64,000 nucleotides of DNA, from sequence record MW822011; one strand, 5' to 3'. Origin of the DNA: Shigella phage TB004. Under the pieces are notes generated by a model. That model saw only the letters and a list, made by a program, of their open reading frames with translations. It made no database searches and was not told the DNA's origin. How positions within the stretch are numbered: the first letter of the stretch is position 1; each line of letters opens with the position of its first letter. Below, one piece after another: positions 2,827 through 9,262 of the stretch. Made by a program: the position numbers and the translations under genes.

Positions 2827-3142
2827 TATTCGTCCGGTCGATGAGACCGGTCTTTCAGAAAAAGAACTTTCAATTAAGAAAGAAAAGGATGAAATAGCAA
2901 AACTTCTTGACCGTCAAGAAAATGGATTTATTATTGAAAAAATGGTAGAAGAGTTTGGAATGAGTTATCTTGAAGCTACGACAGCATTCTTAGAAGAAAA
3001 TTCTATTCCTGAAACTCAATTTGCTAAATTTATTCCTTCGGGTATAATTGAAAAAATTCAGTCAGAAGCTATTGACGAAAATCTTTTACGTCCTTCTGTT
3101 GTTCGTTGTGAAAAAACTAATACATTAGATTTTCTGCTATGA
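2804..3142 (+). CDS. 33: Late transcription accessory protein gp33
   Basis: 112 codons from ATG at 2804; MTQFSLNDIRPVDETGLSEKELS... matches T4 gp33; overlaps the dsbA 3' end. Confidence 0.9.
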   Translation: MTQFSLNDIRPVDETGLSEKELSIKKEKDEIAKLLDRQENGFIIEKMVEEFGMSYLEATTAFLEENSIPETQFAKFIPSGIIEKIQSEAIDENLLRPSVVRCEKTNTLDFLL

Positions 3143-3792
3143 TTAAACTCCGCATGCCTGCTGGTGGTGAAAGATACATTGATGGTAAATCAGTTTATAA
3201 ATTATACTTAATGATAAAACAACATATGAATGGAAAGTATGATGTAATTAAGTATAATTGGTGCATGCGGGTGTCTGATGCCGCTTATCAAAAGCGAAGG
3301 GATAAGTATTTTTTTCAGAAGTTATCAGAAAAATATAAATTAAAGGAACTTGCTTTAATCTTTATAAGCAATCTTGTTGCTAACCAAGATGCTTGGATTG
3401 GTGATATCTCTGACGCTGATGCACTTGTGTTTTATCGTGAATATATCGGACGCTTAAAGCAAATTAAATTTAAGTTTGAAGAAGATATTCGCAATATTTA
3501 CTATTTTAGTAAAAAAGTTGAAGTTTCTGCTTTTAAAGAAATCTTTGAGTATAATCCAAAAGTTCAATCAAGTTATATTTTTAAACTACTTCAATCGAAT
3601 ATAATTTCGTTTGAGACGTTTATCTTGCTTGATTCGTTTTTAAATATAATCGATAAACATGATGAACAGACTGATAATTTAGTCTGGAATAATTATTCTA
3701 TAAAGTTAAAGGCTTATAGAAAAATTTTAAATATTGATTCACAGAAAGCTAAAAGTGTTTTTATTGAAACTGTGAAATCTTGTAAGTACTAA
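3139..3792 (+). CDS. 59: Helicase loader gp59
   Basis: 217 aa, MIKLRMPAGGERYIDGKSVYKLYLMIKQHMNGKYD...; size and sequence match T4 gp59. Confidence 0.93.
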   Translation: MIKLRMPAGGERYIDGKSVYKLYLMIKQHMNGKYDVIKYNWCMRVSDAAYQKRRDKYFFQKLSEKYKLKELALIFISNLVANQDAWIGDISDADALVFYREYIGRLKQIKFKFEEDIRNIYYFSKKVEVSAFKEIFEYNPKVQSSYIFKLLQSNIISFETFILLDSFLNIIDKHDEQTDNLVWNNYSIKLKAYRKILNIDSQKAKSVFIETVKSCKY

Positions 3793-3817
3793 TTGCTTAT
3801 TATAAATAGATTATAAT
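3791..3817 (+). promoter_or_regulatory. Gene 32 promoter cluster: MotA-box-like TTGCTTA, late-type TATAAATA, and a TATAAT -10
   Basis: aaTTGCTTAtTATAAATAgatTATAATtat immediately upstream of the gene 32 leader. Confidence 0.55.
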
Positions 3818-3825
3818 TATCTCAC

Positions 3826-3891
3826 TGACCAGCTATGAGGTCATACATCGTCATAGCACCAACTGTTAATTAAATTAAAAAGGAAATAAAA
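3826..3891 (+). promoter_or_regulatory. Gene 32 translational operator: leader pseudoknot plus A/U-rich single-stranded region
   Basis: UGACC/GGUCA and GCUAUGA/UCAUAGC interleaved pairings (3826-3857), then an A/T-rich unstructured run up to the gene 32 ATG; corresponds to the known gp32 autoregulatory site. Confidence 0.7.
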
Positions 3892-4827
3892 ATGTTTAAA
3901 CGTAAATCTACTGCTGAACTCGCTGCACAAATGGCTAAACTGGCTGGAAATAAAGGTGGTTTTTCTTCTGAAGATAAAGGCGAGTGGAAACTGAAACTCG
4001 ACAATGCGGGTAACGGTCAAGCAGTAATTCGTTTTCTTCCGTCTAAAAATGATGAACAAGCACCATTCGCAATTCTTGTAAATCACGGTTTCAAGAAAAA
4101 TGGTAAATGGTATATTGAAACGTGTTCATCTACCCACGGTGATTACGATTCTTGCCCAGTATGTCAGTACATCAGTAAAAATGATTTGTATAACACTGAC
4201 AATAAAGAGTACGGTCTTGTTAAACGTAAAACTTCTTACTGGGCTAACATTCTTGTAGTAAAAGACCCAGCTGCTCCAGAAAATGAAGGTAAAGTATTTA
4301 AATACCGTTTCGGTAAGAAAATCTGGGATAAAATCAATGCAATGATTGCAGTTGATGTTGAAATGGGTGAAACTCCGGTTGATGTAACTTGTCCGTGGGA
4401 AGGTGCTAACTTTGTACTGAAAGTTAAACAAGTTTCTGGTTTTAGTAACTACGACGAATCTAAATTCCTGAATCAATCTGCGATTCCAAACATTGATGAT
4501 GAATCTTTCCAGAAAGAACTGTTTGAACAGATGGTTGACCTTTCTGAAATGACTTCTAAAGATAAATTCAAATCGTTTGAAGAATTGAGCACTAAGTTCA
4601 GTCAAGTTATGGGAACTGCTGCTATGGGTGGTGCCGCAGCGACAGCCGCTAAGAAAGCTGATAAAGTTGCTGATGATTTGGATGCATTTAATGTTGATGA
4701 CTTCAAAACAAAAACTGAAGATGATTTTATGAGCTCAAGCTCTGGCAGTTCATCTAGTGCTGATGACACGGACCACCAAAGCATACTGTGGTACTATACA
4801 ACTATCGGCAATACTGCTGATGATTAA
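3892..4827 (+). CDS. 32: Single-stranded DNA-binding protein gp32, with a divergent C-terminal tail
   Basis: 311 aa; [52 protein letters not shown]... matches T4 gp32 except the last ~17 residues (…[22 protein letters not shown]). Confidence 0.95.
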
Positions 4828-4840
4828 AGAGGAAAATAAT

Positions 4841-5068
4841 ATGGCTAAAATTGATATTGATGTTGTTGATTTTGAATATATTGAAGAAATTATTCGTAAT
4901 CGTTATCCTGAACTCCGTATTACAAGCGCACTAAATGATCCTAATTGCAATGTTTCGGTTGTTATTGAAGGTCCTTTAAATCGTCTTAAACAATTTATGG
5001 TTAATGAATACTGTGATGGTATGGATGCTGAAGATGTAGAATTTTACACAGGATTTATTGAGCAGTAA
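4841..5068 (+). CDS. Hypothetical small early protein (75 aa), first ORF after gene 32
   Basis: ATG at 4841 with AAGAGGAAA SD 6 nt upstream; track ORF 4757..5068 is an in-frame upstream extension overlapping gene 32. Confidence 0.6.
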
Positions 5069-5074
5069 TTATCA

Positions 5075-5092
5075 AGGGGCTATCAAGCCCCT
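5075..5092 (+). terminator. Hairpin (AGGGGCT-atca-AGCCCCT) after the gene 32 region; possible terminator or RNA stability element
   Basis: 7-bp GC-rich stem with a 4-nt loop and a weak T tract. Confidence 0.4.
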
Positions 5093-5112
5093 ATTAAAAT
5101 GAGGAAAACGCA

Positions 5113-5493
5113 ATGTATACTGGTCGAAAGTATGAACTTGTTCCAAGACTTATTGATACATTTATTAATTATAGCCCACGATCCAATGCGTCAATAGTTA
5201 AAATTATTCGAGAAAATGGCGGATGGTTTGAAGTTAAAGAAGTTTCCGTCGCCAATGGATACAAAGCAGTAAAACACATTGAATGTGCAAATGGAAAGCA
5301 TTTTTATCTCAAAGATAGACTTTTAGAAATTTGCGAAGACGAATTTCATTGTTTTCGTGAGTATAAAGAACCGACTTCTGAAGAAGATGAAATCGAAGAC
5401 AAGGTTTCTGGCGTAACAAAAATTCACTGCATTGTTGACGAAAACAATGTAGATGAAATCATTGAACTTTTGCGAAAAACTTTCAAAAAGTAG
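5113..5493 (+). CDS. Hypothetical protein (126 aa)
   Basis: ORF with GAGGAAAA SD upstream; in the ORF-dense region between 32 and frd. Confidence 0.6.
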   Translation: MYTGRKYELVPRLIDTFINYSPRSNASIVKIIRENGGWFEVKEVSVANGYKAVKHIECANGKHFYLKDRLLEICEDEFHCFREYKEPTSEEDEIEDKVSGVTKIHCIVDENNVDEIIELLRKTFKK

Positions 5494-5800: not shown

Positions 5801-6136
5801 ATGTCTGACATTCATGTAACTGGAATTTCCCAAGTAAACATTCGCTGCCAATTTAAAACTGTACCTGGGGTGACTCATATTACTTTATCACACGACCCAT
5901 ATTCTCGTGGAACACAGTTAACTGGTGTAATTAAGTTTTTCGGTGGAATTGGCGGAAACGAATTTACTATAGGCGATGACGAAATTGTTGGTTGTAAATT
6001 AAAAGTTCAGAAGGGAGTGTTAGAACTTTTTAGTGATGAAGTTTTTAATGAAATCTCACAAGCAGTTAATAAAGGACTGCTAACGTTAATCAAAATGATT
6101 AAAGCCAGTGGATATGTTCCCGATCCTTTATATTAG
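5801..6136 (+). CDS. Hypothetical protein (111 aa)
   Basis: ORF with TGAGGAAAA SD; closely spaced after the previous ORF. Confidence 0.6.
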   Translation: MSDIHVTGISQVNIRCQFKTVPGVTHITLSHDPYSRGTQLTGVIKFFGGIGGNEFTIGDDEIVGCKLKVQKGVLELFSDEVFNEISQAVNKGLLTLIKMIKASGYVPDPLY

Positions 6137-6144
6137 GAGATAAT

Positions 6145-6971
<827 letters not shown>

Positions 6972-7385: not shown

Positions 7386-7934
7386 ATGAAACAATACCAA
7401 GATTTAATTAAAGACATTTTTGAAAATGGCTATGAAACTGATGACCGAACAGGCACAGGAACAATTGCTTTGTTCGGTACTAAATTACGCTGGGATTTAA
7501 CTAAAGGTTTTCCTGCAGTAACGACTAAGAAGCTCGCCTGGAAAGCTTGCATTGCTGAGCTAATATGGTTTTTATCGGGAAGTACTAACGTAAATGATTT
7601 ACGTCAACGTACTCATGGATCTTTAATTGCAGGAAAAACAATTTGGGATGAAAACTACGAAAACCAGGCCAAAGACTTAGGTTATCATAGCGGTGAACTT
7701 GGTCCAATTTACGGAAAACAGTGGCGTGATTTTGGTGGTGTAGATCAAATTGTAGAAGTTGTTAATCGTATTAAAACATTTCCCAATGATAGACGTCAAA
7801 TTGTGTCGGCATGGAATCCAGCTGAACTCAAGCAGATGGCATTACCGCCTTGTCATATGTTCTATCAGTTTAATGTGCGTAATGGTCATCTTGATTTACA
7901 ATGGTACCAGAGAAGTGTTGATGTTTTCTTAGGT
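7386..7934 (+). CDS. td: Thymidylate synthase, exon 1
   Basis: MKQYQDLIKDIFENGYETDDRTGTGT...QRSVDVFLG; coding continuity breaks at the position of the T4 td intron. Confidence 0.95.
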
Positions 7935-8950
7935 TAATTTAGGCCTAGGTATAAGGTGACTTATACTTGTAATCTATCTAAACGGGGGACCTCTCTAGTA
8001 GACAATCCCGTGCTAAATTGTAGGACTACCCTTTAATAAATACTTCTATATAAAAAGAGGTGTTTATGAAAAGCGGAATTTATCAGATTAAAAACACTTT
8101 AAACGGTAAAGTGTATGTTGGAAGTGCTAAAGATTTTGAGAAAAGATGGAAGAGACATTTTAAAGACCTTGAAAACGGTGTTCACTCTTCTATAAAATTT
8201 CAAAGGTCTTTTAATAAACATGGTAATGTTTTTGAATGCTCTGTACTGGAAGAAATTCCATATGAGAAAGATTTGATTATTGAACGAGAAAATTTTTGGA
8301 TTAAAGAGCTAAATTCTAAAATTAATGGATATAATATTGCTGATGCGTCTTTTGGCGATGTGCTTTCAAATCATCCATTAAAAGAAGAAATTGCTAAGAA
8401 ACGAGCTGAAACTGTTAAAGCTAAGATGCTTAAACTTGGTCCTGATGGTCGGAAAGCTCTTTATGGTAAACACGGAAGTAAAAATGGCCGATGGAATCCA
8501 GAAAACCATAAGTTTTGTAAATGCGGTGTTCGCATACCGTCTTCGGCCGATACTTGTGGAAAGTGCCGAAAACGTTCAGGTGAAAATAACCCGTTCTTTA
8601 ATCACAAACATTCAGAAAAAACTAAAACTAAGCTATCTGAAAAGATGAAAGGCAAAAAGCCAGCTAACATCAAAAAGATTTCATGCGATGGGATTATTTT
8701 TGAATGTGCAGCCGATGCGGCTAGACATTTTGAAATTTCATCAGGATTAGTTACTTACCGTGTAAAATCTGATAAGTGGAATTGGTTCTACATAAATGCC
8801 TAACGACTATCCCTTTAGGGAGTAGGGTCAAGTGACTCGAAACGATAGACAACTTGCTTTAACAAGTTGGAGATATAGTCTGCTCTGCATGGTGACATGC
8901 AGCTGGATATAATTCCGGGATAAGATTAACGACCTTATCTGAACATAATG
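7935..8950 (+). mobile_element. Group I self-splicing intron in td (1016 nt) carrying the I-TevI ORF
   Basis: 5' end TAATTTAGGCCTAGGTATAAGGTGACTTATACTTGTAATCTATCTAAACGGGG..., 3' end ...GATAAGATTAACGACCTTATCTGAACATAATG, then exon 2 in frame; length equals the T4 td intron. Confidence 0.9.
8066..8803 (+). CDS. I-TevI: Intron-encoded GIY-YIG homing endonuclease I-TevI
   Basis: 245 codons from ATG at 8066; [35 protein letters not shown]...WNWFYINA; AAGAGG SD upstream. Confidence 0.95.
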   Translation: MKSGIYQIKNTLNGKVYVGSAKDFEKRWKRHFKDLENGVHSSIKFQRSFNKHGNVFECSVLEEIPYEKDLIIERENFWIKELNSKINGYNIADASFGDVLSNHPLKEEIAKKRAETVKAKMLKLGPDGRKALYGKHGSKNGRWNPENHKFCKCGVRIPSSADTCGKCRKRSGENNPFFNHKHSEKTKTKLSEKMKGKKPANIKKISCDGIIFECAADAARHFEISSGLVTYRVKSDKWNWFYINA

Positions 8951-9262
8951 CTACCGTTCAACATTGCATCATATGCTGCGTTAGTTCATATTGTAGCTAA
9001 GATGTGTAATCTTATTCCGGGAGATTTGATATTTTCTGGCGGTAATACTCATATCTATATGAATCACGTAGAACAATGTAAAGAAATTTTACGTCGTGAA
9101 CCTAAAGAGCTTTGTGAACTTGTAATAGGCGGATTACCTTATAAATTCCGCTATCTTTCTACTAAAGAACAATTGGAATACATTCTTAAACTCAGGCCTA
9201 AAGATTTCGTTCTTAAAGGTTACGAATCACACCCTTCTATTAAAGGAAAAATGGCGGTGTAA
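8951..9262 (+). CDS. td: Thymidylate synthase, exon 2
   Basis: LPFNIASYAALVHIVAKMCNLIPGDLIFSGGNTHIYMNHVEQCKEILRREP...KGKMAV, in frame with exon 1 once the intron is removed. Confidence 0.93.
   Translation, partial: LPFNIASYAALVHIVAKMCNLIPGDLIFSGGNTHIYMNHVEQCKEILRREPKELCELVIGGLPYKFRYLSTKEQLEYILKLRPKDFVLKGYESHPSIKGKMAV

Follow-up and report, generated by a model that had tools for sequence, protein, structure and literature searches.

We propose that the aberrant C-terminal end of gp32 in Shigella phage TB004 is explained by a 105-bp deletion in a Tequatrovirus ancestor of the standard gene layout, with the consequences and history set out below, and we put the probability of this reading at about 0.82. 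The gp32 protein is the textbook binder of single-stranded DNA (ssDNA), and its acidic C-terminal domain brings in much of the T4 machinery for replication and recombination. As read from its sequence, the TB004 gene is a real but rare deletion allele of this known protein. In the proposed ancestor, gene 32 would have ended in ...ADDTD-LDDLLNDL-stop, followed by an intrinsic terminator, an early promoter and frd.3. An illegitimate deletion would then have fused codon 295 to the promoter spacer and, because the 105 bp lost run from codon 295 to the -35 hexamer, translation of gene 32 would continue in frame through the spacer, the extended -10 and the frd.3 leader. Seventeen unselected residues would thereby be added before a TAA located 13 nt ahead of the frd.3 ATG.

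The analysis covered one 64-kb stretch of TB004 DNA, referred to here as the window, in which the following features bear on the gene 32 end.

3139-3792, plus strand: gene 59, in the T4-like (Tequatrovirus) segment of Shigella phage TB004, MW822011
3892-4827, plus strand: gene 32, 311 aa (ORF list; Pfam PF08804, E 4e-66; 96% identity to T4 gp32)
3892-4773, plus strand: gene 32 codons 1-294, colinear with wild-type gp32 (BLASTP alignment to T4)
4770-4779, plus strand: deletion junction GGACC/ACCAA, cut between 4774 and 4775 (alignment with Lv5cm, the T4 sequence and the carrier junctions)
4774-4827, plus strand: new tail codons H295-D311, with the stop TAA at 4825-4827; DNA that is non-coding in wild-type phages
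4775-4806, plus strand: remnant of the frd.3 early promoter, namely spacer, extended -10 and start region (promoter scan; Lv5cm motA copy)
4789-4790 and 4792-4797, plus strand: the TG and TACTAT parts of the extended -10
4829-4832 and 4841-4843, plus strand: frd.3 Shine-Dalgarno GAGG and start codon ATG (sequence reading)
4841-5068, plus strand: frd.3, 75 aa (Pfam PF05798, E 4e-33)
5075-5092, plus strand: RNA hairpin AGGGGCU-AUCA-AGCCCCU (RNA fold, -14.1 kcal/mol, z -2.7)
5113-5493, plus strand: frd.2
6390-6971, plus strand: frd

The gap between genes 59 and 32 measures about 100 nt (3793-3891) and holds no segG, whereas T4 carries this homing-endonuclease gene between the same two genes. Upstream of gene 32, TB004 keeps an AT-rich autoregulatory leader/operator as in wild-type T4, although with one TTAAA repeat fewer than T4. 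Since this leader with its operator is kept, autoregulation of gene 32 should be unaffected.

Up to its tail, the protein is an ordinary gp32. It is about 96% identical to T4 gp32 (NP_049854) over residues 1-293, up to ...ADDTD, and BLASTP aligns 299 residues, 288 of them identical, with the similarity ending at the tail. The PF08804 core domain, which in wild-type T4 gp32 corresponds to the structure 1GPC, is complete (223 bits, profile positions 1-208 of 208). The N-terminal MFKRKST and the Zn-coordinating His/Cys cluster match those of T4 in the same alignment; KRKST is the cooperativity motif as defined previously (PMC12893549). Within the acidic A domain, the Dda-binding helix (T4 residues 248-270) is unchanged, and the Ser/Asp-rich linker is also kept. 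By all its core features TB004 gp32 thus belongs to the gp32 family, but it lacks the conserved C-terminal tip.

A sequence-only reading of this DNA had noted that the gp32 tail is replaced after ...ADDTD, which the translation of ORF 3892-4827 and the BLASTP comparison with T4 bear out, and had given T4 gp32 a short LDDLLNDL-type end. Translation of NC_000866 agrees with this, giving a protein of 301 aa with the C-terminal end ...ADDTDLDDLLNDL. Where T4 gp32 has the eight residues LDDLLNDL, TB004 gp32 has 17 promoter-derived residues, a difference read straight from the sequence and not a statistical one. The difference of 10 residues in total length (311 versus 301 aa) is made up of nine residues from the tail (17 versus 8) and a single Gly insertion near residue 23 that also occurs in wild-type 302-aa relatives. 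The replacement is hydrophobic/aromatic, as described, and the lost residues do lie within the protein-interaction (A) domain. The description of the tail as non-acidic holds in part: its computed charge is about -2.2 versus -3.2 for the eight lost residues, but it is still net negative and ends in ADD. An exact-protein look-up of the 311-aa product gave no record.

Nucleotide alignment of the 3' end of gene 32 with T4 and relatives gave a clean deletion. Against the wild-type Salmonella phage Lv5cm, TB004 shows one gap of 105 columns, with both flanks identical and the placement unambiguous, and T4 carries the same wild-type layout as Lv5cm at the gene 32 end. The missing stretch begins with base two of codon 295 and ends with the final base of the frd.3 promoter's -35 hexamer. 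It takes with it the last eight codons and the stop of gene 32 (the rest of codon 295 to codon 302), a spacer of about 20 bases, the intrinsic terminator (GGGGACCCTAGAGGTCCCC, then TTTTTT), and the upstream A/T (UP-like) tract and -35 TTTACA of the TG-extended promoter that lies downstream of this terminator. From the junction to the start of frd.3, TB004 and the wild-type intergenic sequence agree at every base. No DNA hairpin or other structure joining the deletion endpoints was predicted. The tail DNA is the native spacer, extended -10, start region and leader of the frd.3 promoter, and it contains no foreign DNA. As the sequence-only reading had pointed out, the change adjoins the next ORF, at 4841, which is frd.3. 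Its suggestion that local recombination remodelled the gene end does not hold in the sense of imported sequence, the whole tail being native DNA brought into frame by the deletion.

That the tail DNA is normally promoter is supported by two observations: a consensus scan calls the frd.3 promoter in the wild type and not in TB004, and the same module recurs at motA. The wild-type early promoter consists of -35 GTTTACA, a 17-nt spacer, a TG-extended -10 and an upstream A/T tract. In Lv5cm (MZ150757), a 73-nt module stands upstream of both frd.3 and motA, the two copies (at about 147,790-147,870 and 164,418-164,490) lying about 16.5 kb apart with one mismatch between them. Its parts are the T-tract that follows the terminator, the A/T tract, -35 GTTTACA, spacer, TG-extended -10 and start region, and the 32 nt that TB004 retains at 4775-4806 match the motA-upstream copy of Lv5cm without a difference. 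The motA-upstream region, which appears as a second matching place in most phage records, is this promoter module; it explains the origin of the tail DNA and not the deletion.

The 73-nt repeats are potential substrates for ectopic recombination. The motA-upstream copy could in principle serve as partner in an exchange that replaced the gene end with foreign or ectopic DNA, and T-even genomes are highly mosaic. However, both sides of the junction are colinear with the wild-type native locus at every nucleotide, and a complete related genome has GACACGGACC, the sequence that ends at the left endpoint, nowhere but in gene 32. The 64-kb window, moreover, contains no relocated copy of the deleted segment and no second copy of the tail, whose 54-nt coding string occurs there once. 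We regard a replacement of this kind as extremely improbable.

The lost tip is a family-wide feature. A search of a 5.8-billion-protein collection gave 120 gp32 cluster representatives, 114 of which are full length (285-320 aa), with 58-98% identity to TB004. All 114 carry a tip motif, [LIV][DNQE]x[LI][LM], within their last 12 residues, placed exactly three residues from the end in 105 of them, and the preceding 30-40 residues are hypervariable among the representatives. The motif is absent from TB004 gp32, and no copy exists in any frame of the window. Among the listed proteins of more than 285 residues with a complete gp32 domain, just one ends without the tip, a 392-aa protein of phage phiC600P9 that combines the gp32 and Phage_FRD3 Pfam domains; two longer 'metaclust' entries, with about 30% query coverage and in one case a His tag, look artificial or chimeric and were left out. 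TB004 gp32 has therefore lost a short linear motif present in all other sampled family members. The replacement tail was absent from every collection searched, and the sequence-only reading, which had named a tail common among relatives as the finding that would speak against it, is borne out here as well. The universal tip, the lost terminator, the lost -35 and UP-like part of the promoter and the sister fusion alleles described next go beyond what it had noted.

In most of about 500 Tequatrovirus records the gene 32-frd.3 region is matched in two pieces about 105 bases apart, which is the wild-type state, and the wild-type junction 44-mer is present in at least 351 phage records. Six records match in one piece and represent four phages, CrRp10 (France), vB_Eco-B1.1 (Poland), GEP001 (China) and phiC600P9 (China). 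These carriers have the same left endpoint and a deletion of 106 bp, with the junction GGACC/CCAAAGC. The left endpoint, directly after ...GACACGGACC, is shared by TB004 and all carriers, except possibly the phiC600P9 record MZ681930. As the carriers have one base fewer, the gene 32 frame continues into frd.3, and five carrier sequences each translate without interruption to a gp32-Frd.3 protein of 392 aa.

L001, 743-1921: gp32-Frd.3 fusion ORF, 392 aa
L003, 743-1921: gp32-Frd.3 fusion ORF, 392 aa
L005, 740-1918: gp32-Frd.3 fusion ORF, 392 aa
L006, 740-1918: gp32-Frd.3 fusion ORF, 392 aa
L012, 396-1574: gp32-Frd.3 fusion ORF, 392 aa

The two phiC600P9 records differ at the junction, with GGACC-C-CAAAGC in MT630408 (L006) and GGACC-T-CAAAGC in MZ681930 (L012), a change from Pro to Leu in the fusion that could reflect a real mutation, stock heterogeneity or a sequencing error. 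As in TB004, the tip, stop, terminator and -35 hexamer are lost in the fusions, and all four phages resemble TB004 in lacking segG between genes 59 and 32. TB004, however, keeps an extra A and enters another frame that stops at 4825-4827, whereas the fusions run into frd.3. The TB004 allele is a sister of the gp32-Frd.3 fusion alleles and not one of their number. The frd.3 frame, +1 with respect to gene 32, stays open upstream as far as 4757 (ORF 4757-5068) and overlaps the gene 32 end, so that a fusion of the 106-bp type would arise from a +1 shift at any point in the tail.

The exact TB004 junction, GGACC/ACCAAAGC, was found neither in INPHARED (44-mer megablast) nor, by gapped patterns, in JGI metagenomes, GTDB genomes or IMG/VR, the last of which has low power for such a search since the wild-type junction itself occurs there in just one contig. 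This absence from the public collections searched is what an assembly or sequencing artefact would predict, in which case the real phage would have a wild-type gene 32 end. The right endpoint also lies inside the repeated 73-nt module, the deleted stretch contains a strong hairpin, and the disagreement of the phiC600P9 records at the junction base hints at instability or error at that position. On the other hand, the four carrier phages come from different laboratories and have the same left endpoint, with a right endpoint only 1 nt off; a repeat misassembly would link the frd.3 and motA flanks rather than drop unique gene 32 codons, and the loss of 105 bp is not a typical read error. The other large genes in the TB004 window are uninterrupted, which argues for a good assembly. 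Given four independent genomes with a near-identical deletion and the intact large genes of the window, we consider an artefact very unlikely.

The 105-bp and 106-bp alleles most likely had one origin, with a later loss of 1 nt in the fusion lineage. Comparison of the alleles favours this history because the extra A of TB004 matches the wild type at its position, both alleles have one left endpoint in common, and the left flank of CrRp10 is nearly identical to that of TB004 (99.2% over 500 nt, placing CrRp10 in the top 7 of about 500 records). Common descent is likely rather than proven, since several wild-type phages are as close to TB004 as CrRp10 is and the flanking haplotypes are mosaic among the carriers. 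The neighbouring gene content also differs among the carriers, which suggests that the allele has been spread by recombination onto different genome backgrounds. A TGA/GAT triplet length polymorphism in the frd.3 leader (CTGCTGATGATT versus CTGCTGATGATGATT; 4817 region, about 1667-1675 in L001) lies 43 nt 3' of the junction and splits the carriers into two groups. It occurs in wild-type as well as deletion phages and adds one Met to the linker of the fusion proteins.

The split of the carriers into these two flanking haplotypes, one having the TGA triplet and one lacking it, would also suit independent 105-bp and 106-bp deletions at a hot spot, for example through a nuclease or topoisomerase cut followed by end joining, and no microhomology was found at any of the three junction forms (AC, C and T). 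Breakage by SegG was considered as a cause of the deletion; it is plausible in general terms and unsupported by position, its site lying toward the 5' end of gene 32, well away from the deletion junction. SegG is known to cleave within gene 32 of segG-less phages in mixed infections (PMC2988022). However, the TGA triplet is found in wild-type phages too and is 43 nt off, such that recombination can explain the two groups, and the near-identity of the TB004 and CrRp10 left flanks speaks against separate events. Because the alleles share the left endpoint and their right endpoints fall within 1-2 nt of each other, a single event followed by a 1-nt change is the simplest account, more parsimonious than a hot spot. 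We hold independent deletions to be quite unlikely.

The CrRp10 paper, the single paper found on these carrier phages, does not mention the fusion, the fusion proteins are annotated simply as SSB, and our literature search found no description of either deletion allele. Separately, we observed that in vB_EcoM_HZ_ZJUN4 (PP216085, L011 1326-1574) a separate wild-type Frd.3 is annotated as 'single-stranded DNA-binding protein'. This label was probably transferred from the fusion proteins, and the practical point is that such fusions have probably already led to the mis-annotation of Frd.3 as an SSB in another genome.

Beyond the protein, the deletion allele is predicted to rewire transcription of the adjoining frd cluster. 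What remains of the frd.3 promoter in TB004 is the spacer and TGgTACTAT; the -35 position is now occupied by CGGACC, which, read by eye, matches TTGACA at 3/6 positions. The loss of the -35 and of the upstream tract has likely crippled this early promoter. A terminator-like site is present in the wild type, whereas the scan found none in TB004 at 4500-5200, and RNA folding gave z -3.5 for the wild-type 3' end versus z -0.45 for the TB004 junction, which is unstructured. At 5075-5092 lies the first stable hairpin 3' of the junction. The terminator scan did not call it, and its lack of a U-tract makes a terminator role doubtful. Gene 32 transcripts are now likely to read into frd.3 and, given a hairpin of this kind, possibly beyond it. 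The spacing of 13 nt between the gene 32 stop and the frd.3 start could allow translational coupling.

With its N-terminal domain and core intact, TB004 gp32 should still bind ssDNA cooperatively, and with helix 248-270 intact it should still bind Dda. Crystallographic work has shown the Dda helicase bound to the gp32 peptide 248-270 (PMC11551737; PDB 8S9I), and in the same study residues 271-301 were disordered and weakly binding. When the PDB was searched for the tip among chains of at least 20 residues, full-length gp32 (8GME) was the sole structure returned, and its residues 271-301 are disordered. On gp32-coated DNA, gp59, UvsW and gp41 depend on the whole A domain for their function, and their interactions suffer when this domain is lost (PMC10391720). 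The literature search found nothing specific on a function, a partner or escape mutations of the tip, with none assigned to residues 294-301.

Other ssDNA-binding proteins suggest what the tip may do. Like wild-type gp32, E. coli SSB (...DDDIPF) and T7 gp2.5 (terminal Phe) have a short, conserved acidic/hydrophobic tip after a variable disordered linker, and the tips of these two proteins dock partner proteins. However, gp32 shares no homology with either in the tip region, and its own tip partner is not mapped. By this analogy, the lost tip is most likely a docking site, and TB004 gp32, with the conserved LxxLL-like docking tip gone, probably suffers a mild partial loss of A-domain partner recruitment. 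The A domain is likewise impaired in gp32-A (gp32*I, residues 1-253), a proteolytic or engineered form; gp32-A lacks all 48 A-domain residues, whereas TB004 gp32 keeps 40 of them, including the sole structurally mapped partner site. Phages that lack the tip, or have it buried in a fusion, would show that it is dispensable for propagation. The fusion carriers are on record as complete genomes, their laboratory hosts named, and offer ready material on the role of the tip, and the alleles provide a natural handle on a little-studied, universally conserved motif of gp32.

A further reading would make the allele adaptive and still evolving. Loss of the tip, or its burial in a Frd.3 fusion, would alter partners or sensors (Tin, AbpAB, DARNA, Hna) on gp32-coated ssDNA and so evade host sensing of gp32; a 1-nt change would switch between a free tail and a fusion; and the frd.3-frd nucleotide-metabolism cluster would, through the missing terminator, come under the transcription and autoregulation of gene 32. 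The P2 Tin protein reportedly poisons gp32, a finding of Mosig and colleagues from 1997. The allele family has lasted in phages isolated in France, Poland and China, whose genome backgrounds differ, and its three junction states (AC, C and T) look as if the site were still changing. In addition, gp32 has been documented to trigger AbpAB (PMC10732053) and activates DARNA (bioRxiv 10.64898/2026.02.22.705581). However, none of the papers found implicates the C-terminal tip, and DARNA activation by T7 gp2.5 is unaffected by deletion of its C-terminal Phe (bioRxiv 10.64898/2026.02.22.705581). The frequency of the allele is low, with six records against at least 351 wild-type ones, and the tail-coding DNA is undiverged from the wild-type leader, so the tail peptide shows no sign of selection. 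We consider adaptive change unlikely.

Elsewhere in the window, between frd.1 and frd, where T4 has a short spacer, TB004 has two ORFs, at 5801-6136 (111 aa) and 6145-6390 (81 aa). Similar ORFs occur in GEP001 and CrRp10 and in part in vB_Eco-B1.1, indicating mosaic accessory content. Further downstream, the thymidylate synthase gene is apparently split into ORFs 7386-7937 and 8948-9262 (region 7386-9262), and the insert between them carries an ORF of 247 aa at 8060-8803. This insert would fit the td group I intron with I-TevI that is annotated in the best-matching phages.
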